Of a DNA stretch of 24,572 bases, positions 3,993 through 23,372 are shown in pieces. The DNA lies in contig DATBVZ010000665.1 of NCBI GenBank assembly GCA_036515095.1, positions 1 to 24,572 of the forward strand, written 5' to 3'. The notes beneath the pieces were generated by a model. The model saw only the letters and a program-made list of their open reading frames with translations, did no database searches and was not told the DNA's origin. Source of the stretch: Cyclobacteriaceae bacterium. Lineage in GTDB: Bacteria; Bacteroidota; Bacteroidia; Cytophagales; Cyclobacteriaceae. Position 1 is the stretch's first letter, and each line of letters begins with the position of its first letter. The position numbers and the translations under genes were made by a program.

Positions 3993-4080
3993 TCGCGCAC
4001 TTATCTCCCGGCACAATATTCTTGGCGTGTTTCCGGATAATATGTACATTCAAAAACCTAAAAACTTAACGTCATTAGTT

Positions 4081-4683
4081 ATGAAAGCGCTTCTTTCATG
4101 TGTTGCAACTGTGGCTATCCTGGTAACCCTGCAGGGCTTTGATCAGAATGATGGCTGGATCACCTTGTTCGATGGTAAAACCCTCAAGGGTTGGAAAGTG
4201 AATGAAAATCCCGGAACGTTCACCGTTGCTGACGGCATGATCGTAGCCTTTGGACCCAGGGCTCATCTTTTCTATGATGGGGAGGTCATGGACCATACGT
4301 TTAACGACTTTGAATGGAAGGCAGATGTAATGACCACACCGGGCTCCAACTCGGGAATGTATGTACACACCGCGTTCCTTGAGGAGGGATGGCCTTCGAA
4401 GGGCATTGAGATTCAGGTGAACAACTCACACAGCGACTGGCGCAGAACGGGCAGTGTGTATGCCTTGCAGGATGTCAAAGAGCCGCCTGCCAAAGACAAC
4501 GAATGGTTCACTCAGCACATTATAGTGAAAGGCAACACGATCACTGTAAAGGTAAACGGCAAGACCATCAACAAATACACCGACGCGGAAGGAAAGTTAA
4601 GCGGAGGTACGATAGCCTTGCAGGGTCATGACCCGGCGAGCAAAGTATTCTATAAGAATATTATGGTCCGGATGAGTAAATAA
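4081..4683 (+). CDS. DUF1080 (3-keto-disaccharide hydrolase/hydratase family) secreted protein
   Basis: WITLFDGKTLKGW, NSGMY, IEIQV, TGSVY and GTIALQGHDP motifs. ATG 4081 gives a clean signal peptide (MKALLSCVATVAIL); ATG 4042 is an alternative start. Confidence 0.88.
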   Translation: MKALLSCVATVAILVTLQGFDQNDGWITLFDGKTLKGWKVNENPGTFTVADGMIVAFGPRAHLFYDGEVMDHTFNDFEWKADVMTTPGSNSGMYVHTAFLEEGWPSKGIEIQVNNSHSDWRRTGSVYALQDVKEPPAKDNEWFTQHIIVKGNTITVKVNGKTINKYTDAEGKLSGGTIALQGHDPASKVFYKNIMVRMSK

Positions 4684-4685
4684 GG

Positions 4686-4713
4686 TTGAAGATTGAAGGG
4701 TTGAATAGTTGAA
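4686..4713 (+). repeat. Short tandem repeat with TTGAA core, 4 copies at 7-8 bp period, directly after the DUF1080 stop
   Basis: TTGAA at 4686, 4693, 4701 and 4709. Confidence 0.75.
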
Positions 4714-4731
4714 TAGAAGTTAAAATTAAAA

Positions 4732-6492
4732 GTGTTAGTAATCCCAAAACTTTCTGGTTTGGCGAAAGCGTTTTGCCGGCTTTGCCTATTGCCTGCTGCC
4801 CATTACCTACTCCTCATTGCCTACTGCCTGCTGTTATCGGGTTGTAATACAGCTTCAACCTCCGAGCATGAAATTGCCACCGATTCCGTTTCCATTGCAA
4901 ATGGACGTCAGTTGTTCGATCGCGATTGCAGTTCGTGCCATAACTTCAGACAGGATGGGATCGGTCCGCAACTGACAGGTATAGCTGGAGAAGTTTCCGC
5001 GGATTGGTTGCGCAGTTTTATCAGGAACCCGCAGGAGGTAATCAATTCCGGGGATGCACGCGCGCAAACACTGTTCACATCGTATCGTACGATCATGCCT
5101 TCATTTGCGCATTACTCGGACGAAGACGTCAACATGGTCATCGCATTTTTGAATTCCCGCAAGGAAAGGCCGGAGAGACGGCGCACCCGCAATCCGGATG
5201 CACTGGAAGATCCGATTCCTGAGGCCATACCCATGTCCGACCTGGTCGTGGGACTTGAAGAGATCACACAGATACCGCCTTCAGCCGAACCCCCTTTGCG
5301 CACCCGGATCGCCAAGCTCGACTTCAGGCCGGATACAAAGGAATTGTTCATGCTGGATCTGAGAGGCAAGCTTTATTATCTGGATAATGACCAGCCAGAA
5401 GTCTACATGGACATGGCAGCGGTACGGCCTGCCTTTATCAACACACCCGGACTGGCAACAGGTTTCGGCAGTTTTGCCTTTCATCCGGAATTCGGCAAGA
5501 ACGGGCTTCTGTACACCACGCACACCGAAGGCCCCGGGTCGGGAATAGCTGACTTCAGTTATAACGATTCTATTAAGGTCCTGCTTCAATGGGTGCTTAC
5601 CGAATGGAAGACGGATAAGCCGGAGGCCATTCCTTTTTCAGGGAAAGGGCGCGAGCTATTCCGGATCAACATGGTGCATTCGTTTCATGGGGTTCAGGAG
5701 ATAACCTTCAATCCCTTGTCGAAACCAGGCAGTGAAGACTATGGCCTGCTTTATATCGGGATCGGCGACGGATCCAGCGTGGAATTTGGATATCCGTTCC
5801 TGGTCCACTCCACGTCAACCATATGGGGAAGCATTGTTCGGATAGATCCGGCAGGAAGGAACAGCGCGAACGGGCAATACGGTATCCCCAGGACAAATCC
5901 CTTTGCCGGAAACAAAAAACCGAACGTACTTGGTGAGATCTACGCCTACGGTTTCAGGAATCCCCACCGGATAACCTGGAGCAGGTCGGGTCAGATGCTG
6001 GCGTCGAATATAGGCCACCACAATATCGAATCGCTGAACCTCATTCTTCCCGGTCACGATTACGGCTGGCACATCCGTGAGGGCACCTTCGTGATGGATG
6101 CCTACACTAACATGAGCGACGTGTTTGCATTGCCGCCTGATGACTCTATCTATCACGTTACCTATCCGGTAGCCCAATATGATCATGATGAAGGTAATGC
6201 GATTTCCGGCGGATATGAGTATTGGGGGAAGGTGGTCCCTGAACTGATAGGCAAATACATTTTCGGTGATATCGTTAGCGGCCGCTTGTTTTATGTAGAG
6301 ATGAACGACCTGAAGTTGGGAAGCCAGGCGCCCATCCGCGAATTCCAGGTCTCCCTCAACGGCGAACGGAAGACCTTCCCGCAAATTTGCGGGAATAACC
6401 GTGTCGACCTTAGATTCGGCCGCGACGCGCAGGGGGAGCTCTATGTTTTTACCAAACCGGACGGGAAGGTATACAAAATAATGAGTGAATGA
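4732..6492 (+). CDS. Lipoprotein: N-terminal cytochrome c fused to a PQQ-dependent glucose/sorbosone dehydrogenase (GSDH) beta-propeller
   Basis: Lipobox LLSGC, haem motif CSSCH with a downstream Met (IMPSF), and GSDH motifs YIGIGDG and IYAYGFRNPHRITW. GTG start; the exact start is uncertain. Confidence 0.85.
   Translation: MLVIPKLSGLAKAFCRLCLLPAAHYLLLIAYCLLLSGCNTASTSEHEIATDSVSIANGRQLFDRDCSSCHNFRQDGIGPQLTGIAGEVSADWLRSFIRNPQEVINSGDARAQTLFTSYRTIMPSFAHYSDEDVNMVIAFLNSRKERPERRRTRNPDALEDPIPEAIPMSDLVVGLEEITQIPPSAEPPLRTRIAKLDFRPDTKELFMLDLRGKLYYLDNDQPEVYMDMAAVRPAFINTPGLATGFGSFAFHPEFGKNGLLYTTHTEGPGSGIADFSYNDSIKVLLQWVLTEWKTDKPEAIPFSGKGRELFRINMVHSFHGVQEITFNPLSKPGSEDYGLLYIGIGDGSSVEFGYPFLVHSTSTIWGSIVRIDPAGRNSANGQYGIPRTNPFAGNKKPNVLGEIYAYGFRNPHRITWSRSGQMLASNIGHHNIESLNLILPGHDYGWHIREGTFVMDAYTNMSDVFALPPDDSIYHVTYPVAQYDHDEGNAISGGYEYWGKVVPELIGKYIFGDIVSGRLFYVEMNDLKLGSQAPIREFQVSLNGERKTFPQICGNNRVDLRFGRDAQGELYVFTKPDGKVYKIMSE
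4782..4830 (+). repeat. Seven tandem degenerate heptamers (consensus YTGCCTR) inside the signal-peptide coding region
   Basis: TTGCCTA TTGCCTG CTGCCCA TTACCTA CTCCTCA TTGCCTA CTGCCTG. Confidence 0.8.
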
Positions 6493-12192: not shown

Positions 12193-13533
12193 ATGAAACG
12201 CAGAAAATTCATTAAGGGCACGGGTGCAGCGCTCGCAGGAACAGTTTTGGCACATGCGGGAGTGATGAGTGCCGCGGCCAGTTGCATGCTTGCCGACAAA
12301 CTCAACATTGGCGTGATCGGATGCAATGGCATGGGATGGTCAAACACAAACTCGTTGTTGAAGATGAAGGATGTGGATCTGGTTGCGATTTGCGATGTGG
12401 ATGACAACGTGGTTCAGCAACGGGTAGCCGACTATAAGAAACTGAGGAATAATAAACCGAAAACATACAAAGACTATCGTGAACTACTCAATAACCAGGA
12501 GATCGATGCTGTTGTGATCGGCACGCCGGACCATTGGCATTGCCGGATCATGGTCGATGCCGTAAATGCCGGGAAGCATGTATATGTGGAAAAACCCATT
12601 GCAAACAGCATCGAGGAAAGCCGGATCATGGTAGCTGCCCAGGAAAAAACCGGGAAGGTGGTACAGGCCGGGCAATGGCAGCGAAGCGGACCGCACTATA
12701 GAAAGGCCATTGAGATCGTGCAATCTGGTGTCCTTGGCAGGATCCGTCTTGTCAAGGTGTGGGCTTACCAGGGATGGATGAAACCGGTTCCCGTAGTTGC
12801 CGACTCAACCCCGCCGGCTGGAGTCGACTATAAGTTCTGGCTCGGTCCAGCCCCTGAGAGACCGTTTAACCAGAACCGTTTCCACTTTAATTTCCGGTGG
12901 TTCTGGGATTATGCGGGCGGCTTGATGACCGACTGGGGTGTGCACGAAATCGATATTGCTTTATATGCCATGCAGACGGAGTCGCCGATTTCCGTTATGG
13001 CGTCGGGCGGCAAGCTGGCTTATCCCGATGATGCCTCTGAAACACCCGATACACTACAGACCGTCTTTCAATACAAAGATTTCAATATGCTCTGGGAACA
13101 TGCCACGGGCATTGACAATGGTCCTTATCATCGTACCGAGGGCATAGCATTTATTGGAAACAACGGTACCCTCGTGGTAAATCGGGGTGGTTATGAAGTG
13201 CTGGTAGAAAACGAATCAGAAGGTTATTCCAGCACGGGCAAACCGAAGATGGAACTTATAGAAACCTATGCCAAACCTGCCGAACTAAATTACCTGGACC
13301 TGCACACGCAGAATTTTGTGGAAGCCGTGCGGAAGAACAGTCAGGAAGCGCTCAATACACCTATCCGTTCCGGAAGTATTGCAGCAATAAACGCCCACAT
13401 GGGCAACATTGCCTATAAGACCGGGAAAAAGGTCTTCTGGGACGAGAAGAGCAATGGCTTCGTTGACAACACCGCCGCAAATGACCTGATCACCCCGGAG
13501 TACCACAACGGATGGAAGATCCCCGTTGTATAG
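12193..13533 (+). CDS. Tat-exported Gfo/Idh/MocA family oxidoreductase
   Basis: MKRRKFIK twin-Arg signal, GVIGCNGMG Rossmann motif, IGTPDHWH, HVYVEKP and GGLMTDWGVH. Confidence 0.93.
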   Translation: MKRRKFIKGTGAALAGTVLAHAGVMSAAASCMLADKLNIGVIGCNGMGWSNTNSLLKMKDVDLVAICDVDDNVVQQRVADYKKLRNNKPKTYKDYRELLNNQEIDAVVIGTPDHWHCRIMVDAVNAGKHVYVEKPIANSIEESRIMVAAQEKTGKVVQAGQWQRSGPHYRKAIEIVQSGVLGRIRLVKVWAYQGWMKPVPVVADSTPPAGVDYKFWLGPAPERPFNQNRFHFNFRWFWDYAGGLMTDWGVHEIDIALYAMQTESPISVMASGGKLAYPDDASETPDTLQTVFQYKDFNMLWEHATGIDNGPYHRTEGIAFIGNNGTLVVNRGGYEVLVENESEGYSSTGKPKMELIETYAKPAELNYLDLHTQNFVEAVRKNSQEALNTPIRSGSIAAINAHMGNIAYKTGKKVFWDEKSNGFVDNTAANDLITPEYHNGWKIPVV

Positions 13534-15390: not shown

Positions 15391-16320
15391 TCACACAACC
15401 TCACTCACCACCTTTTTCATTTTTTCCAGACCGGTCCTGGCAACGGTAAGCGGATCCTGTGCCCAGTAGTCGCGGTTGAAAAGTTCGAGCGACAGGATCT
15501 TTTGGCCACTCATATTCTTCAGGTGAGTAAGGAGTTGTTTCAGGGGAGCTACGCCATCGCCGGGATAGATGCGGTCTCTGTCCTGCAGCTGCTCGCGCGG
15601 AATGGACCCTGGGTAGTCATTCATGTGAAAGATCTCCACGACACTGCCGTCCAGCATCTTCATGCAGTCAAACCCGGAGTTGCCGCGGTGCAGGTGGTAA
15701 ACGTCTGCCAGAATACGGACACCTGGATCGTTCGCCACTGCCGCTGCCATCAGTGCCTGCCCAAGGTGATAGAACACGGACGCTCCCCAGACTTCAAGCT
15801 GAGGAGTAACGCCGGTCTGACGACCAAGGTCAAGGAGTTCCTTGTATCGCTGTCCCACTTTATACAGATCGGGAGCAGTGGTGACTCCCGCAGCGGGCGC
15901 CGCAATGCGCGGGCAGTCGAGAGCAGCCATGATCTCCATTTCCTCTTTCATCTGAACAAACCCTGCCTTGCGCTTTTCGTCATCATCGGTCATCCACGGA
16001 GCGAACCCGATGGCATTGACAACAGGCAGTTTGCTGTCGGTCGTCAGCTTTCTTAACGCGCTCAGTGATTTGCCGCTATCCATGTACGCCCGGAGATCTC
16101 CGATCCATACTTCAATGCAGTCGTAGCCGGCACGGGCCGCGATGTCAATGTATTTCTCGACACCCAACTTTTGTCCGCTGATGGTGCTGGTGTTCAAGGA
16201 AAACGTAAACTTGTCTTTCTTTTGAGCGGCGGAATCGCCTCCGGCAGAATAACCCAATGGTCCCATCAATGACAGTCCGGCAGCGACAGATGCTGTTTTC
16301 AGGGCGTCTCTTCTTTTCAT
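15391..16320 (-). CDS. Tat-exported sugar phosphate isomerase/epimerase (AP_endonuc_2, xylose-isomerase-like TIM barrel)
   Basis: MKRRDALK Tat signal; metal-ligand motifs PQLEVWG, LADVYH, IFHMND, YPGDG and LSLELFN. Confidence 0.9.
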   Translation of the reverse strand: MKRRDALKTASVAAGLSLMGPLGYSAGGDSAAQKKDKFTFSLNTSTISGQKLGVEKYIDIAARAGYDCIEVWIGDLRAYMDSGKSLSALRKLTTDSKLPVVNAIGFAPWMTDDDEKRKAGFVQMKEEMEIMAALDCPRIAAPAAGVTTAPDLYKVGQRYKELLDLGRQTGVTPQLEVWGASVFYHLGQALMAAAVANDPGVRILADVYHLHRGNSGFDCMKMLDGSVVEIFHMNDYPGSIPREQLQDRDRIYPGDGVAPLKQLLTHLKNMSGQKILSLELFNRDYWAQDPLTVARTGLEKMKKVVSEVV

Positions 16321-16568: not shown

Positions 16569-17438
16569 TTACCTCGGCCTACTGCGATGCAAACAAGCGC
16601 ATCCGAACATTTCCCCGCCCCGGAGTACCTTATAGCGCTGTCCGACTTTTTCCGCTTCCCTGACAAATTCACTCACGTCGGCGGTATTAAATGTGAACAT
16701 ATCGTAATGACAGGGGATAACCCATCCCGCATTGATGGCACGTCCAAGCTCCGCCGCTTCCCTGCAATTGAGATTTCCGGCAACTCTCCGTGCAGGATCG
16801 TTGCCATTGATCGGAAGAATGGCGACATCCACGGAAAAGGGTCTTAGCAGATCGACCATGCCATCATACCAAAGTGTGTCTCCGCTGTGGTAGATCGTGC
16901 GATCGCCGAATTGGATAACGTATCCCATGAACCGGCAGTTGCCGTTCTCGTCACGTTCAATCTCGTTGTGCTTCGCCGGGACACCGGTAAAAGTGAATTC
17001 ACCTGCTGTTACGGATGATCCGTCCGTCAGGCCGGTCGGGAAATTCAATCCACATCCGGTTCTTTCGGATACAAACTGCCGGTTGGCTTCCGGGATAATG
17101 AACGTAATTCCCGGGCTATTTTTCAAAACAGGTATCAGCGTCTCTGCATCCAGATGGTCGGTATGATTATGACTTGATGTGACCACCGTGATATTCTTCA
17201 GTAATCCCGGGTCCACCACGCGTTCGCTCATTCGTACGTGCGGCTTTTCAGTCTGTGCATACTTTATGGTAAGGGAATCTGATAAGTACGGATCGATGAG
17301 CACACGTTGACCCCTCCACTGCAGTAAAAATCCGCTTTGACCGAGCCACCAGATATAGAAATTATCTTCATCCGGAACAAAGGCGTCCATCTCAGCGATC
17401 AGGGCCTCATCTTTCTTTATGGCCGGTATATGTTTCAA
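16569..17438 (-). CDS. MBL-fold metallo-hydrolase (UlaG/L-ascorbate-6-phosphate lactonase-like)
   Basis: WWLGQSGFLL, LIDPYLS, SSHNHTDHLD (HxHxDH), IYHSGDT, DVAILPING and IPCHYDMF. The proposed TTG start at 17438 overlaps the upstream TGA (TTGA); the track start at 17570 lies deep inside the upstream gene. Confidence 0.87.
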   Translation of the reverse strand: MKHIPAIKKDEALIAEMDAFVPDEDNFYIWWLGQSGFLLQWRGQRVLIDPYLSDSLTIKYAQTEKPHVRMSERVVDPGLLKNITVVTSSHNHTDHLDAETLIPVLKNSPGITFIIPEANRQFVSERTGCGLNFPTGLTDGSSVTAGEFTFTGVPAKHNEIERDENGNCRFMGYVIQFGDRTIYHSGDTLWYDGMVDLLRPFSVDVAILPINGNDPARRVAGNLNCREAAELGRAINAGWVIPCHYDMFTFNTADVSEFVREAEKVGQRYKVLRGGEMFGCACLHRSRPR

Positions 17439-18463
17439 AGTGTTTCCCTGACGATTTTTGCTCCGCTTACCATGTTCTTCAGCTTCAACCTGGCGGCCCA
17501 ACGGGCAGTCTGGCTCAGGCCGCAATCGGGAGCCACGGAGAAGCGATCGGCAGGAACAAACTGCAGGCAACGCCTGATCCTTTCCGCAACATCGTCGGGC
17601 GTTTCTATGTAGTAGTTCTTTACATCGACTATCCCCGCCGCTACGTGCATTTTTTCCCCGAAGACCTTTAGTAATTCAAGCTCGGCAAATTCACGGTTGG
17701 CCATCTCCACGTGGATCTCGTCTACGGTCAGATCGAGAAAATCCGGGAGCATCGGTTTGATACTGCGGTAGCCGACGGACCTTCCCCTGAAGTTCCCGAA
17801 GCACAGATGCGTACTTAACCTTGTTTTTCCGGTGATGGGTTTTACCGTGCGATTGAAAATATCGACAAAGCGCCTGGTGTCTTCCCGGTACGCGTAACAA
17901 CTCATGGAAGGTTCATCCACGGTGACCTCTTCGCATCCGGCCGCCACCAGGTCTTCAAGCTCTTTGCTTACGATGGGAAGCAGGGCCTCCGTGATTTCAT
18001 AGCGGTCTTTGTAGGTTTTGTTGGGCAGGAGTCGCCCGCTGAGGGTGTAGGGCCCTGGAATGCTTGCCTTCAACACGGGTCCCTTCGGAGCGAGCTTCTT
18101 CAGCCGCACGAATTCCTTTACTGCTCCCAATCCTTCCGGCGCATGAAGTTCGCCCACAATAGTATTCCTCCCCCGCTGGTCATGGGCCGGTGGACCAAAT
18201 TTGCGGGTTTCGGATTGGTTGTTCTCAATTCCTTTTATATAACCGTAAAAGGACAGGTTGAAATCCAGCCGGGTCTGCTCGCCGTCGGTAATAACATCCA
18301 GGCCGGCATTCACCTGATCGTGAATGGCGGCGACAACCGCGTCCTCAATCATCTCTTCAATGTCGGCTGCGCCAAACTTGTCCAGATTCTGTGAAGCAAA
18401 TTCCAACCATCCTGGAAAGGGATAACTGCCGATCACCGTTGTACGAATGGGAATTGATTGCAT
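17435..18463 (-). CDS. Cobalamin-independent methionine synthase II family (Meth_synt_2) single-barrel Zn enzyme; function uncertain
   Basis: TTVIGSYP, GLDVITDGEQ.R, VDEP, Zn ligands HLC (STHLCFGN), Glu in HVEMA and Cys in APDCG. At 342 aa it lacks the N-terminal folate-binding barrel of MetE. Confidence 0.88.
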   Translation of the reverse strand: MQSIPIRTTVIGSYPFPGWLEFASQNLDKFGAADIEEMIEDAVVAAIHDQVNAGLDVITDGEQTRLDFNLSFYGYIKGIENNQSETRKFGPPAHDQRGRNTIVGELHAPEGLGAVKEFVRLKKLAPKGPVLKASIPGPYTLSGRLLPNKTYKDRYEITEALLPIVSKELEDLVAAGCEEVTVDEPSMSCYAYREDTRRFVDIFNRTVKPITGKTRLSTHLCFGNFRGRSVGYRSIKPMLPDFLDLTVDEIHVEMANREFAELELLKVFGEKMHVAAGIVDVKNYYIETPDDVAERIRRCLQFVPADRFSVAPDCGLSQTARWAARLKLKNMVSGAKIVRETL

Positions 18464-18485: not shown

Positions 18486-19271
18486 TTACTTTTTCATACC
18501 TACGCCGGCGTATAGCCTGGCTAGACGATGCGCGTGTTCGTCGTAGGCGCTTTCAAATAAGGATACGGCCCGTTCCTTTCCGACGATCGCTGCGCTGGTT
18601 AGCACCTTTGGAGGATCGCCGGCATCCGTCAACAACTTGGCTACTTCGGCTTTGATGCAGTTAATGAGCATGGCACCGCCTACCGTGGAACCCGGTGATA
18701 CAGGGGTATCCAACCCGGGAACGTGAACCATTGCATCACCCACGGGCGCACCGGTATCCAGTACGATGTCGGCAAAGTCGGTGAGCTTTTTGCCGTCACC
18801 GCGTTTGCTCTCGGTTTTTTCCAGGTGTGCCAGGGTGACCAGGGCTACAACCCGGATCTTGTTTTGCCGGAAAAGCTCGGCCACCTCAACGGGAACGTTA
18901 TTGCAGCCGCTGGATGATATCACCAGGGCAGAGTCCTTCGCGTTCAGGTCATAGTTGCGCAGTATGCGTTCGGCCAATCCCGAAACATTTTCCAGAAACA
19001 TGGCCTGACGCTGGCCGTTGGCACCGACGACGAGGTTGTGAAACGTGAGTGACAACTCTACTATCGGATTATAGCCCGGATAGGATCCGTATCGCGGCCA
19101 CATCTCCTCAACCATAATGCGGCTGTGGCCACTGCCGAATACGTGCACCATACGGCCGGAAAGTATGGTTTCGGCAAACCAGCGCGCGGTCTCTGTGATC
19201 TTATGCTGCTGCGCGGTAACGGTGTCAATGATTTCGCGGCACCGCTGCAGGTACATTTCCGTAAGACTCAT
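18486..19271 (-). CDS. SIS-domain protein, UPF0309/NagS-like
   Basis: VHVFGSGHS, PRYGS, FLENVSGLA, VISSSGCN.VPVE, DIVLDTGAPVGDA and SPGSTV. Confidence 0.87.
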   Translation of the reverse strand: MSLTEMYLQRCREIIDTVTAQQHKITETARWFAETILSGRMVHVFGSGHSRIMVEEMWPRYGSYPGYNPIVELSLTFHNLVVGANGQRQAMFLENVSGLAERILRNYDLNAKDSALVISSSGCNNVPVEVAELFRQNKIRVVALVTLAHLEKTESKRGDGKKLTDFADIVLDTGAPVGDAMVHVPGLDTPVSPGSTVGGAMLINCIKAEVAKLLTDAGDPPKVLTSAAIVGKERAVSLFESAYDEHAHRLARLYAGVGMKK

Positions 19272-20176
19272 ATGGCTGACAATTCTAATCCCTTGATTAC
19301 GTCTCCGGCATAACAGGCTGCGCCGATAGCCCCGGCCAAATCGCCTTGCTGTGCTTTTACGATCTCAACCCGGTTTCCACCCGCTCTCCATTCGTATTCG
19401 GCAACAAGCCTTTCGAGCGGTTCAAAGAGGTCCTTACCAGCCTCGGTGATGCCGCCGCCCAGCACAATGACTTCCGGAGAAAGGATGTTGGTGATCGAAA
19501 CTATACCTACCGCCAGTTTTCTTAGGGAGGTAGTCCAGACTTCGTTGGCAAAACCATCACCATTGCGCACAGCCTTCAACAACCCGTGTGTGGAAGAGAA
19601 CCTTCCCTGAGAGCGTTTCGACACGGTGGCATTGCCAATGGAATCCTCCAGGCTTCCCGGTGTGCCGGTTACCCCCGCGTCGCCCTGGTCGTTGATCACC
19701 ATATGCCCGATGTGACCGGCTTTGTTGAAAGCACCGAGGTACGGTTTACCATCGATCATGATCGCTCCGCCAACCCCCGTCCCCAGAGTAAGCATCACCA
19801 CATGTTTCCTGTCCTTTGCTGCGCCAAACTTTGCCTCGGCGATCATCGCAGCAACCGCATCGTTCAATACCACAGTTTCAATGCCGAGAAGATCTTTCCA
19901 AATAAGATTTTCGAGTCCCTGCATCCGCCCCGGCATTACCGCTATCGCCGAATGATCGGCGTTGGGCAGGCCGGGCGCGGCAATCCCAACCCGCGCCTGG
20001 TTGCCGGACTTCTTTCTCAGGTCGGCAACGATAGTGGCAATGGCATTTTTCCAAATGCGGCTGTCGCCATCATGCGTTGAAGTATATTGCTGATGCAATA
20101 CGGTCCCTGTTTTGTCCACCAACACGGCTTTTATCCGCGTGGCGCCAAGGTCAACTCCAATTTCGGCGGCTTCCAT
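19268..20176 (-). CDS. ROK family sugar kinase with atypical substrate and Zn motifs
   Basis: GVDLGAT, NDAVAAMIAEAKFGA, LTLGTGVGG, LGGGIT and AGAIGAA. Its TGA overlaps the SIS ATG by 4 nt. Confidence 0.9.
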   Translation of the reverse strand: MEAAEIGVDLGATRIKAVLVDKTGTVLHQQYTSTHDGDSRIWKNAIATIVADLRKKSGNQARVGIAAPGLPNADHSAIAVMPGRMQGLENLIWKDLLGIETVVLNDAVAAMIAEAKFGAAKDRKHVVMLTLGTGVGGAIMIDGKPYLGAFNKAGHIGHMVINDQGDAGVTGTPGSLEDSIGNATVSKRSQGRFSSTHGLLKAVRNGDGFANEVWTTSLRKLAVGIVSITNILSPEVIVLGGGITEAGKDLFEPLERLVAEYEWRAGGNRVEIVKAQQGDLAGAIGAACYAGDVIKGLELSAI

Positions 20177-20206: not shown

Positions 20207-21004
20207 TCATTCGTTAATCTGTCCATCGCTTACGCTCCAGGCACCATCCACCGCTACGACCTGCCCGGTGGTGAATTTTGAGGCTTCGCTCATAAAATAT
20301 ACCGCAAGTCCGTCGAGGTCGTCAGGACGGCCAATCCTTCCCCCGTCCAGTGGCTGTTTGGTTGTTGTAAATGACATGATCGCCTTGTCCCCGGCAGCGC
20401 GCTGAGCCATGGGCGTTTCGATCAGTCCCGGGGCGATCACGTTTATGCGTATGTTGTATTTCGCGTAGTACGACGCAATGGATTTGCTGAATCCTATAAC
20501 TGCAGATTTTGCCGCAGCATACGCGTGGGTTGTAAAGTATTGCGATGAAGGAGAGGTAGCAAGTACGGATCCCATATTCAGGATGGTCCCTGGTTTCTTG
20601 CGGTTGAGCAAATAATTGATCGCTGCCCGGTTGGAAAGCATGAGTGAGGTCAGGTTTAAGGCCAGTGTCTTGTTCCATCCGTCCAGTGACAGCTCGTGCA
20701 GCGGCCCGTCGCCAACTTGTCTGCCGCTGCCACCGGCAACGTGATACAATCCGTCGAAACCCCCGAATTCGTTATGGCATAGTCCGATGGCATTGGTGGC
20801 TGTTCCTTCTTCCACGGCATCTCCCTGAATAGCGATCGCCTTTTTGCCCAGGCGCGTTTGCGCTGCGTAGCTACTGGCATCATCCATCCCCACGATTACG
20901 ACCCTTGCTCCACTTTCAATGAATGCAGCGGCCGCTGAAAGCCCGATACCGGTGGTACCGCCGATGATCACTAACGATTTATTCTCCAGATGTATGCCCT
21001 TCAT
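20207..21004 (-). CDS. Classical SDR NAD(P)-dependent oxidoreductase
   Basis: IIGGTTGIG, NMGS, YAAAK (YxxxK), RINVIAPGLIETPM and FTTGQVVAVDG. Confidence 0.93.
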   Translation of the reverse strand: MKGIHLENKSLVIIGGTTGIGLSAAAAFIESGARVVIVGMDDASSYAAQTRLGKKAIAIQGDAVEEGTATNAIGLCHNEFGGFDGLYHVAGGSGRQVGDGPLHELSLDGWNKTLALNLTSLMLSNRAAINYLLNRKKPGTILNMGSVLATSPSSQYFTTHAYAAAKSAVIGFSKSIASYYAKYNIRINVIAPGLIETPMAQRAAGDKAIMSFTTTKQPLDGGRIGRPDDLDGLAVYFMSEASKFTTGQVVAVDGAWSVSDGQINE

Positions 21005-21214
21005 GGGTGTAGCACTGTCATTATTTCCTCAGCAATAATGCAGTATGAATTGGCATTAAGTTAAGGTAATCATTTGTTTTTTTGCCAACTTGGATGGCAT
21101 TTTAGTTGCCGGTTGTTTGGTGCAGCCTGACACAAAAACGGGCATAATTAGGTGTATTGTGTAAGGGCACATACCACCGGGCACAATGCCTGCAGTTTCA
21201 TTCACAATCAAAGC

Positions 21215-22276
21215 ATGCTGATGCGAATCTTTGTAACCGTTTTGATGCATGTGCTTCTTTGCCCGGATCTCCGTGGCCAGCCAAATGATCCGCCTTCATT
21301 CATTAAAGGAGTGTATGGCAATCCAGGTGCGTTATTGACAGAAGGGCATTCTTTCCGGTCACTGGGAGTGAATGCCGTCTTTGTGAGAAGCATTTCACTG
21401 GATGAATCATTGATGCGGTCGGCGAAGCAACAGGGCGTTCGTGTTTACGTGGAATTTCCAACCTTGAACGGGAAGGGATACGTGGAAGAACATCCTGAAG
21501 CATGGCCAGTCAATGAACGTGGTCAAAAATCCCCCGCCGCCGATTGGTTCATGGGTGTTTGCCCGACGGACCCGGATTTCAGGTCTTACCGGATGACTCA
21601 GCTGCGATCCATTCTAAGCTCTTTCGACGTAGACGGTATCTGGCTTGATTATCTCCACTGGCATGCGCAGTTTGAAACACCTGAACCAATTCTTCCGGAA
21701 ACCTGCTTCTGTGACCGCTGCATTAAACAGTTTGCAAATGCACAGGATCTTACCGTTCCGGAAGGCGAGACCGCATATCGAGCACACTGGATACGCTCCA
21801 ATCAGGATTCATCGTGGAGGGAATGGAGGTGCGGTATTGTAACGAACTGGGTAAGGGATATAGGGAACGAAGCAGATGCCTTGCGCCCTGGCATCTTGCT
21901 GGGCCTTTTTTATTGTGCGTGGTATCCTGATGATTTCGATGGCGCGCTTACGAGGATAATGGGCATCGATTTGAAAGCGCTGGCGGAAATTGCGGACGTA
22001 TTTTCGCCGATGCTATTCCATAGCATGATGGGCCGGTCTGTAACCTGGGTCAAGGAATATCCCGCGTGGCTTCGATCGTATGTCGGACCAGCGCCACTCA
22101 TCTGGCCGATTGTACAGGCGCACAACAAGCCTGGTATGGTCACCGCTAACGAATTCCGGCAGGTGATGATCAATGGATCGGCGCCGCCTTCCAGCGGGAT
22201 AATGATGTTTTCGGAGCAGTCGCTACTGGCCGATGATGAAAAGCTTCTGGTTTTGAAGTTACTTTATAACGACTAG
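21215..22276 (+). CDS. Secreted glycosyl-hydrolase-like 10 (GHL10/DUF187-type) TIM-barrel protein; tentative
   Basis: Signal peptide from ATG 21215 or 21221; GVCPTDP...FDVDGIWLDYLHW, CFCDRC and DVFSPMLFH resemble GHL10-type proteins. Confidence 0.65.
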   Translation: MLMRIFVTVLMHVLLCPDLRGQPNDPPSFIKGVYGNPGALLTEGHSFRSLGVNAVFVRSISLDESLMRSAKQQGVRVYVEFPTLNGKGYVEEHPEAWPVNERGQKSPAADWFMGVCPTDPDFRSYRMTQLRSILSSFDVDGIWLDYLHWHAQFETPEPILPETCFCDRCIKQFANAQDLTVPEGETAYRAHWIRSNQDSSWREWRCGIVTNWVRDIGNEADALRPGILLGLFYCAWYPDDFDGALTRIMGIDLKALAEIADVFSPMLFHSMMGRSVTWVKEYPAWLRSYVGPAPLIWPIVQAHNKPGMVTANEFRQVMINGSAPPSSGIMMFSEQSLLADDEKLLVLKLLYND

Positions 22277-22301: not shown

Positions 22302-23372
22302 ATGCTGCTGAATCTCACAGGTGGTTTTCTGGGAAGCGGTAAAACTACGGCCATTGCAGGCGCATGCCGGCAGTTGATGGCTGCCAACAGAACGGTGGGC
22401 GTGATCACCAATGACCAGGGTGAACAACAGGTGGATACGCTTTCGCTGGAGAATTTGGACATACCGGTACGCGAAGTGGCAAACGGTTGCTTTTGCTGCA
22501 ACTACGATCAGCTCGATGCGCATATCCGATCCCTGGAACTGCAACGGCCGCCGGATGTGCTCTTCGCGGAATCTGTCGGCACGTGCACTGATCTGATAGC
22601 AACAATCGCAAAACCCTTGAACCTTGATCGACCGGACATCAGTGTTGTCATTTCTGTTTTTGCCGATGCGGCCTTTCTGGCTTCTTTACTGGAAGGTACT
22701 TCCCTGTTTATTGAAGAGACGGTCCGCTATATTTATCGAAAGCAATTGGAGGAAGCCGACCTGTTGATAATAAATAAAGTTGACCTGGTACGGCCTCCGC
22801 AAAGAGAAAGAATAGCGGGCATGCTGGCTTCGGAGTATCCGGGTAAGACGGTTTTGTACCAGAACTCCAGAAAGGATTCGGACATAACCCGATGGATTGA
22901 ATTAGCCGGAAGTTGCCGGCCTGCACGGCGAGTATCCCTGGAACTGGATTACGCTGTCTACGGAGCAGGAGAAGCGCAGCTGGCCTGGCTTGACAAGAGG
23001 ATAAGCATAGTGGGCCAGGGTGGGGCAGTAGTGATTGCCCGCAGGATCATGGATGGCATATTCCGCCGCATTCAGGAGCAGCGATTGTTTATCGGGCATC
23101 TCAAGTTTTTTGTTGAAACGGAGCGGTGGAAAAAAAAGATCAGTTTTACTCCTTCCACGACCGATTTTCCTTTGTTGCCGGACGATCGTGACATAAGAAA
23201 TGTGAATATGGTCATTAATGCAAGAGTTCAAACCGATCCTCAACTGCTAACCGGAATAGTTGATGAAGTCATTGAACGTGCTTCACGGTCCGGCAATGTG
23301 ATCATCCCGGGCGACTGGTCGGCTTTCGTTCCGGGATATCCGAGGCCTGCGCGGAGGATAGTAGGTGAATGA
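22302..23372 (+). CDS. COG0523/CobW-P47K family G3E GTPase (putative metallochaperone)
   Basis: Walker A GGFLGSGKTT, ITNDQG, GCFCC metal motif, AESVGTC, QLEEAD and NKVD. The C-terminal domain contains GEAQLAWL and IGHLK. Confidence 0.9.
   Translation: MLLNLTGGFLGSGKTTAIAGACRQLMAANRTVGVITNDQGEQQVDTLSLENLDIPVREVANGCFCCNYDQLDAHIRSLELQRPPDVLFAESVGTCTDLIATIAKPLNLDRPDISVVISVFADAAFLASLLEGTSLFIEETVRYIYRKQLEEADLLIINKVDLVRPPQRERIAGMLASEYPGKTVLYQNSRKDSDITRWIELAGSCRPARRVSLELDYAVYGAGEAQLAWLDKRISIVGQGGAVVIARRIMDGIFRRIQEQRLFIGHLKFFVETERWKKKISFTPSTTDFPLLPDDRDIRNVNMVINARVQTDPQLLTGIVDEVIERASRSGNVIIPGDWSAFVPGYPRPARRIVGE

Follow-up and report, generated by a model that had tools for sequence, protein, structure and literature searches.

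Background

Among the described enzymes of the MetE family, MesD (ACIAD3523 in Acinetobacter; Shewanella structure PDB 3RPD; PMC7857596) is a single barrel of ~345 aa that occurs in aerobes, needs no folate domain and is genetically paired with one helper gene, MesX. XecA, the epoxyalkane:coenzyme M (CoM) transferase of Xanthobacter Py2 (pXAUT01), is a MetE-family barrel that serves catabolism and not methionine synthesis; its Zn-thiolate attacks the carbon of a catabolic intermediate, and its partners are a short-chain dehydrogenase/reductase (SDR) and FAD enzymes. Mes-like relatives of MetE are common in aerobic bacteria, where their role has been stated as an open question (PMC7857596, PMC12478193, PMC12366255). 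The stretch of DNA analysed here (the window; 24,572 nt, positions 1 to 24,572 of contig DATBVZ010000665.1, GenBank assembly GCA_036515095.1, Cyclobacteriaceae bacterium) carries a gene for a 342-aa single-barrel MetE-family Zn enzyme, designated P0001, at positions 17435..18463 of the minus strand. P0001 shares with MesD all the general features named above, together with the Zn ligands, the Ser/Glu/Asp triad and the GEQTR motif, but the two proteins are only 25-29% identical and belong to separate clades, and the gene paired with P0001 encodes a metallo-beta-lactamase (MBL)-fold hydrolase in place of MesX and lies among sugar genes. A catabolic role like that of XecA is proposed for P0001, in a separate clade and with the residues that hold the amino acid retained.

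Those sugar genes resemble parts of known pathways, namely the NagS- and MurQ-type SIS chemistry that operates with a ROK kinase (PMC12680351), UlaG, and the Lmo2620-type phospho-sugar lactonases. They score below the cut-offs of the NagS, UlaG and phosphotriesterase (PTE) families, and the known pathways contain no MetE-like enzyme. The reading tentatively preferred here, at somewhat less than an even chance, is that a Zn-dependent, thiol-alkylating MetE-domain enzyme has been recruited into a catabolic cassette for phosphorylated (amino)sugars, where it removes an alkyl group to homocysteine and the MBL hydrolase opens the product.

The MetE-like gene and its cassette

The cassette comprises five genes in the window, listed here from the 3' to the 5' end of the operon.

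16569..17438, minus strand: MBL-fold metallohydrolase, UlaG-like, with an HxHxDH motif (SHNHTDHLD) and a TTG start that overlaps the stop of the MetE-like gene
17435..18463, minus strand: single-barrel MetE-family Zn enzyme (P0001), 342 aa, ATG start
18486..19271, minus strand: SIS_2/UPF0309 phosphosugar-binding protein (PRK02947), related to NagS and PDB 3CVJ
19268..20176, minus strand: ROK-family sugar kinase, overlapping the SIS gene by 4 nt
20207..21004, minus strand: SDR oxidoreductase, first gene of the cassette

Residues 7-336 of P0001 align to positions 2-323 of the 324 positions of Pfam PF01717 (Meth_synt_2), with a score of 108.2 bits (cut-off 21) and an E-value of 6.8e-31. The SIS_2 gene immediately upstream ends 22 nt before the ATG and no N-terminal barrel is present; no separate Meth_synt_1-only gene was found in the 92%-complete source genome. 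An earlier first-pass annotation, made from the sequence alone, had described a protein of 342 aa with an intact Zn site and no N-terminal folate barrel, and the open reading frame (ORF), the HMM match and the residue alignment agree with this, the gene lying on the minus strand. The AlphaFold2 (AF2) model of P0001 has a pLDDT of 90. Its best matches in the PDB are MesD (3RPD) and the C-terminal barrels of MetE at TM 0.8-0.84, MesD being the best solved-structure match both by sequence (E 1.2e-29) and by fold (TM 0.84). In a structural search of Swiss-Prot the best matches were catalytic subunits of archaeal split MetE (TM 0.87), and UROD was also among the structural matches.

The TGA stop of P0001 (17437-17435) shares bases with the in-frame TTG at 17438 from which the downstream MBL-fold ORF starts (TTGA). 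The residues added by this TTG start (KDEALIxEMD) are conserved across 33 homologues, and the 4-nt overlap is therefore taken to be real. The closest solved relatives of the MBL protein are UlaG-type L-ascorbate-6-phosphate lactonases (3bv6, 2wyl) and its HxHxDH motif is intact, so that the translational coupling to a lactonase-like gene noted in the first-pass annotation is borne out. The SIS protein is closest to 3CVJ and NagS (9eol, 6e-25). NagS chemistry gives 2,3-unsaturated and imine products, and NagS homologues of ~30% identity from outside Streptomycetaceae lack NagS activity and are inactive on GlcNAc-6P (PMC12680351). Given the inactivity of such homologues, the suggestion that P0001 acts on a dehydrated SIS product is kept as a lead only. 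No Rfam riboswitch or other RNA was detected at the cassette, and a scan for sigma-70 promoters and terminators gave results at chance level.

Conservation of the cassette

At least 8000 database homologues of P0001 were found; identity is 81% or higher for the best 120, most of which belong to Chitinophagaceae-type Bacteroidota. ORFs were clustered from 80 genome loci, among them those of two isolates that carry the MetE-like gene (Ferruginibacter paludis CECT 8366 and Flavihumibacter profundi KCTC 62290); 79 loci entered the neighbourhood counts. Among loci with room for the gene in question, the MBL gene was present in 75 of 75, SIS_2 in 58 of 59, and ROK and SDR in 53 of 59 each. Other locus samples agreed. 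The hosts of the operon are soil and freshwater Bacteroidota, and a 65%-identical marine relative retains only SIS_2-MetE-MBL. Further neighbours encode DoxX, GMC and GFO/IDH/MocA oxidoreductases, glycoside hydrolases (GH43, GH3, GH144-like, GH29 and GH97) and esterases; no sulfur amino-acid genes were seen among the clustered ORFs of these neighbourhoods. The cassette itself is not described in the literature searched on UPF0309 and on MetE-like proteins together with SIS and ROK.

A NagB-like hexosamine-6-phosphate deaminase gene lies within the cassette in 29 of the 79 loci. In 11 loci (L062, L067, L076, L078, L082, L089, L091, L097, L105, L112 and L123) genes for a GbcA-like Rieske oxygenase and an MFS_1_like sugar transporter are inserted, usually between ROK and SIS_2, and 10 of these 11 also have the NagB-like gene inserted. 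The Rieske protein belongs to an N-demethylase family and scores 371 bits, below the cut-off of 670. The Rieske, transporter and NagB-like insertions hint at an N-substituted amino sugar as substrate.

Relatives of P0001 at 38-47% identity occur in other contexts (with a thioesterase and a MaoC dehydratase; with GFO and SDR genes; with an FAD monooxygenase), and no partner gene is common to these. An Atlas search also placed relatives in Verrucomicrobiota and Pseudomonadota.

Co-occurrence and an alternative module

Co-occurrence was analysed in 201 genomes of the host family, with statistics that ignore phylogenetic relatedness. The MetE-like gene is accessory, being present in 19 of the 201 genomes. 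All 19 carriers have the MBL orthologue and 18 have SIS_2 (Fisher p 1e-18, related genomes not being independent). The same number, 18 of 19, hold the SDR-ROK-SIS cassette; the exception without SIS_2 (G084) is cut at a contig end. With the glycan-utilisation loci in which the cassette lies, this upholds the sugar-derived setting proposed for the substrate in the first-pass annotation. In two genomes (G108 and G109) the MetE-like/MBL part and the SIS_2 part are both present but unlinked. One further genome (locus L149; G075:C6:3846000-3865999) has an MBL orthologue of 55% identity next to ROK-like genes and lacks both the MetE-like gene and SIS_2.

SIS_2 is found in 26 genomes, eight of which lack both the MetE-like and the MBL gene. 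These eight have instead SDR-ROK-SIS_2 followed by an FAD oxidoreductase (PF12831) and a PTE family hydrolase. This second version of the cassette was located in sister genomes (L141-L148, L150 and L151) and is absent from the window. The FAD enzyme and the PTE protein have their orthologues in the same 12 genomes, all with SIS_2. The 26 SIS_2 genomes thus divide into 14 with only the MetE-like and MBL pair, eight with only the FAD oxidoreductase and PTE pair, four with both and none with neither, the most extreme complementarity possible (one-sided Fisher p 3e-4, uncorrected for relatedness). In one genome with both pairs (G002) they form a single operon, SDR-ROK-SIS_2-FAD oxidoreductase-MetE-MBL-PTE.

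The nearest relatives of the PTE protein are phospho-furanose lactonases (NF045706; PDB 3pnz, 9.5e-45). By these similarities it is a predicted amidohydrolase-fold analogue of UlaG, and the MBL and PTE proteins are predicted to be phospho-sugar lactonases of two different folds. For the FAD oxidoreductase the AF2 model is mediocre (pLDDT 67), and its PDB matches are generic two-dinucleotide-fold flavoenzymes (TM 0.26-0.39) that give no clue to its chemistry. The slot after SIS_2 always holds one chemistry enzyme together with a hydrolase that resembles phospho-sugar lactonases. Methionine cannot be a product of the flavin pair, so that what the two modules have in common must be a purpose in the sugar pathway.

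Active-site residues

P0001 was aligned with Citrobacter MetE, Acinetobacter MesD, a YxjG-like protein of Priestia and Xanthobacter XecA, using E. coli MetE numbering, and residue roles were carried over at 22-32% identity. On this alignment H219, C221, E253 and C314 of P0001 correspond to the MetE Zn ligands H641, C643, E665 and C726. Homocysteine is contacted in MetE by Ser433, Glu484 and Asp599 (PMC7857596, PMC539065), and this triad is kept in P0001 as S13, E62 and D183. All seven residues, Zn ligands and triad, are invariant in 81 members of the clade.

In XecA, whose thiol is CoM, two of the three triad positions are lost, Asn and Arg replacing Ser and Glu; these positions therefore tell the thiols apart. 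With S13, E62 and D183 all retained, a homocysteine-type thiol is the likeliest nucleophile for P0001. A CoM-type (XecA-type) transferase, one form of the thiol transferase put forward in the first-pass annotation, is disfavoured by the retained Ser and Glu and by the separate tree clade described below, and unlike that of XecA the setting of P0001 showed no sign of CoM metabolism. The statement in the same annotation that the protein is probably not making methionine lacks support, for the homocysteine triad is retained where XecA has changed two positions. Among the other options offered there, salvage of a methyl group from a modified sugar is no less likely than a lyase or hydratase.

The second substrate appears to differ from that of MetE. 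The pterin contacts of MetE include Trp539 and Glu583 in the Tm enzyme, equivalent to E. coli 561 and 605 (PMC539065). The positions of W561 and E605 are occupied in P0001 by R144 and C189, and the MetE contacts are not kept. R7 and T181 are specific to the clade, all other aligned sequences carrying Gln at the T181 position. The site looks shaped for a homocysteine-type amino-thiol together with a non-folate second substrate, which from these replacements may be anionic.

Three proteins of the same uncharacterised superclade (P0125, P0164 and P0165) have lost Zn ligands, with arrangements such as Q-x-C...E...D or L-x-G...E...G, which excludes Zn-thiolate catalysis by them; the window clade has P0125 as its nearest outgroup.

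Family placement

P0001 falls below every NCBIfam equivalog cut-off tested. Its best match among these models is the split-MetE model NF003317 (PRK04326), at 212.3 bits against a cut-off of 406; a true member (P0209) scores 530 bits and XecA scores 183, about the same as P0001, so the match is generic. On the MesD model NF006589 (PRK09121) P0001 scores 135.6 bits against a cut-off of 392. This model is identified as that of MesD by an A. lwoffii protein encoded beside a 'putative oxygenase MesX', which passes it with 687 bits. Scores on the two-barrel MetE model TIGR01371 (78.9 bits; cut-off 929.95) and on NF002119 (PRK00957; 95.8/94.5 bits; cut-off 258) are likewise low, the latter model being assumed equivalent to MesA and its cut-off being passed in one of 14 control genomes. 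On YxjG/YxjH-type models P0001 reaches 72.8 bits against 313 (NF005085) and 73.5 against 576 (NF004875); the Priestia YxjG-type member scores 459 on the former, above the cut-off, and 431 on the latter, below it. NF002272 was considered as a MesC model and dropped, no control genome having passed its cut-off.

In a maximum-likelihood tree the window clade lies inside a group of 25 uncharacterised single-barrel proteins (support 97/100), which stands apart from MetE with split MetE, from MesD and from XecA. MesD pairs with P0256 (100/98) and XecA with P0271 (99/98), and the YxjG type is the most distant branch. The tree contains no MesA, MesB or MesC reference sequences. The proposal that P0001 stands outside the methionine-synthase families agrees with both the model scores and the tree for the validated families testable here, and in the phylogeny it extends to MetE, MesD, XecA and the YxjG type, the sequences of MesA, MesB and MesC not being in the tree.

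The archaeal split-MetE catalytic subunit (the 'methionine synthase' of Sulfolobus and Pyrococcus) has the same residues as P0001 at 29-32% identity, but P0001 lacks the pterin contacts as well as reaching only half that family's cut-off; a role as such a subunit was rejected, no gene for a partner N-terminal half having been found in the 92%-complete genome. No match to PF08908 (MesX, DUF1852) was found in the 92%-complete genome, the same search having matched no control genome either, and MesX was not seen in the 79 cassette neighbourhoods.

Methionine synthesis in the host genomes

The source genome carries a split MetH. A true metE is present in 30 of the 201 genomes, 3 of the 19 carriers of the MetE-like gene and 27 of the 182 non-carriers, and the two genes show no relationship. 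A cobalamin riboswitch (RF00174, 78-102 bits) lies directly upstream of all four true metE genes examined in the same bacterial family (loci L049-L052 in G109, G169, G038 and G057, three of these four genomes having the cassette as well). No Rfam match was found at the window (E<=1) or at eight other cassette loci. A B12-independent backup methionine synthase was rejected on the grounds of this regulation and co-occurrence. The MetE-like protein is a sugar-pathway enzyme and not a housekeeping synthase, the cell's methionine synthase being MetH. One of the metE loci (L052) also has a TPP riboswitch.

Salvage of S-ribosylhomocysteine was weighed and discarded. AhcY is encoded in the genome, in which no LuxS was found; the compound offers no free primary hydroxyl to a ROK kinase, and the NagB-like and glycoside-hydrolase neighbours do not fit.

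Proposed mechanism and alternatives

In the reading preferred here, zinc would activate the thiolate of L-homocysteine, or of a very similar amino-thiol, as in MetE, MesD and XecA. The thiolate would then attack an sp3 carbon of a phosphosugar-derived substrate bound in the former methyl-folate site, with R144, R7 and C189 lining the substrate side. The likeliest outcome would be that a modified (amino)sugar phosphate loses a methyl or other alkyl group, with methionine or S-alkyl-homocysteine as by-product. The MBL hydrolase would open the phospho-lactone or ester form of the sugar product, which would pass to central metabolism, in 29 of the 79 loci by way of the NagB-like deaminase. The FAD oxidoreductase and the PTE protein would carry out an oxidative, thiol-independent version of the same two steps. 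The demethylation flavour of this scheme rests on family precedent, the retained homocysteine site and a parallel with glycine betaine. Glycine-betaine N-demethylation has three known routes, a Zn/homocysteine transferase, the GbcA Rieske oxygenase and flavin dehydrogenases, and all three kinds of enzyme are found around the cassette. By analogy, the MetE-like/MBL pair might be an oxygen- and cofactor-independent system for dealkylation of (amino)sugar phosphates onto homocysteine, a catabolic 'sugar-dependent methionine synthase' for which a flavin oxidase and lactonase could be exchanged; this more specific form is considered doubtful. On the same doubtful footing, it might at times be joined by the GbcA-like Rieske demethylase and represent a carbohydrate counterpart of the BHMT, GbcAB and flavin-dehydrogenase trio.

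Several observations weigh against the preferred reading. A thiolate accepts methyl groups poorly from O- or N-methyl sugars, and we know of no such donor in the family. The strict pairing of the MetE-like protein with MBL, and of the FAD oxidoreductase with PTE, is not obviously needed by demethylation, and the four genomes with both pairs, interleaved in G002, fit complementary roles as well as alternative ones. The Ser, Glu and Asp could hold some other amino-bearing ligand, such as an amino sugar or a sugar amino acid, in place of homocysteine. The MetE-like protein also shows unusual conservation (70-86% identity between genera, with 181 of its 342 positions invariant), of a degree seen more typically in core enzymes than in catabolic accessories.

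The strict pairing is accounted for by a glyoxalase-like scheme for thiol-dependent detoxification or conversion of a reactive carbonyl sugar phosphate, in which the NagS-like SIS protein would dehydrate, and in effect deaminate, a hexose or hexosamine 6-phosphate, giving a 3-deoxy-2-oxoaldehyde or an enone to which the Zn-thiolate would add, and the MBL protein would hydrolyse the resulting thioester or lactone and regenerate the thiol, the FAD oxidoreductase and PTE doing the job oxidatively. Glyoxalase II is itself an MBL-fold enzyme. Also consistent with this scheme are the kinship of the SIS protein with NagS and the unsaturated and imine products of the latter, an unlinked MetE-MBL locus (L031) that is flanked by two VOC/glyoxalase-family genes and an esterase, and a gene for BshC (G000:C751:9816-10904), which makes bacillithiol, a cysteinyl-glucosamine thiol that is probably the main low-molecular-weight thiol of the host of the source genome. 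The scheme is nonetheless judged unlikely: thiol addition to a carbonyl is not known from any PF01717 member, hemithioacetals form without an enzyme, the MBL sequence resembles UlaG and not glyoxalase II, distant NagS homologues lack NagS activity (PMC12680351), and the retained homocysteine-shaped site is left unexplained. A further candidate is a non-thiol role, in which the Cys2-His-Glu zinc would be a Lewis acid towards an oxygen atom in an amino-sugar acid or phosphate (for instance a 2-amino-aldonate 6-phosphate mimicking an alpha-amino acid) and the protein would be a lyase, hydratase, isomerase or decarboxylase, in line with the main option of the first-pass annotation. The UROD/MetE superfold does include non-transferases, as the UROD matches illustrate, a similar set of Zn ligands handles oxygen ligands in alcohol dehydrogenases, the cassette has its NagB-like deaminase in 29 of 79 loci, and Glu and Asp could hold a sugar amine while Ser held a carboxylate or phosphate. 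To our knowledge, however, every characterised PF01717 enzyme alkylates a thiol and a non-thiol member would be without precedent; and since the seven residues also persist in superclade relatives whose neighbouring genes are quite different, the triad seems to be ancestral and to define the substrate. This role is accordingly held to be rather improbable.

Much the same low probability is given to P0001 being a fifth folate-independent 'core' methionine synthase, with the MBL protein as obligatory helper in the manner of MesX for MesD and the sugar genes merely nearby or an indirect source of the donor. Such a synthase would agree with the complete set of Zn and homocysteine residues, the EQTR motif in common with MesD, the two-gene MetE-MBL module apart from sugar genes in G108 and G109, and the very high sequence conservation; MesD, moreover, co-occurs with MetH in most genomes (PMC7857596). 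Yet in well-assembled genomes the MetE-like gene was always accompanied by the SIS cassette (18 of 19, the locus of G084 ending at a contig end), it has no cobalamin or SAM riboswitch, unlike metE of the same genomes, and it shows no anticorrelation with metE. The slot is filled in eight genomes by an FAD oxidoreductase and lactonase pair that is unable to make methionine, and a Mes-like homologue of Phaeobacter gave no methionine prototrophy (PMC12366255, PMC12478193).

The fold of P0001 is known and its Zn-thiolate chemistry probably so, the new elements being the pathway, the partner and the second substrate. A protein with intact Zn and homocysteine sites that is constantly placed with an MBL hydrolase in a conserved sugar-phosphate operon points to an undescribed reaction between sugar breakdown and sulfur amino-acid chemistry, and not to routine methionine synthesis. 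The clade is tractable, being abundant and having an obligate partner, a defined five-gene cassette and a natural replacement module in sister genomes. Solving its function would add either a new class of methyl or alkyl donor for Zn-thiolate alkyl-transfer enzymes or the first non-transferase activity in the family, and would end the routine misannotation of these proteins as methionine synthases in metabolic reconstructions of Bacteroidota.

Other features of the window

The cassette adjoins the following genes.

15391..16320, minus strand: xylose-isomerase-like TIM barrel (IolI-like), downstream of the MBL gene
21152-22276, plus strand: weak GHL10-like protein, divergent from the cassette
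22302..23372, plus strand: CobW/COG0523-type metallochaperone GTPase, divergent from and adjoining the cassette

The IolI-like gene is linked to the cassette only in the closest relatives (L005 and L024), and the CobW gene adjoins the cassette in these two loci as well. Either the Zn enzyme or the MBL hydrolase could be a client of the CobW GTPase. The window also has genes typical of oxidative (3-keto) cleavage of glycosides, at 4027-6492 and 12193-13533 of the plus strand; these regions encode a 3-keto-disaccharide hydrolase, a GSDH-cytochrome c fusion and a GFO/IDH/MocA protein, the last matched in part by the BT_2158 glycoside 3-dehydrogenase model (190 bits; cut-off 750).

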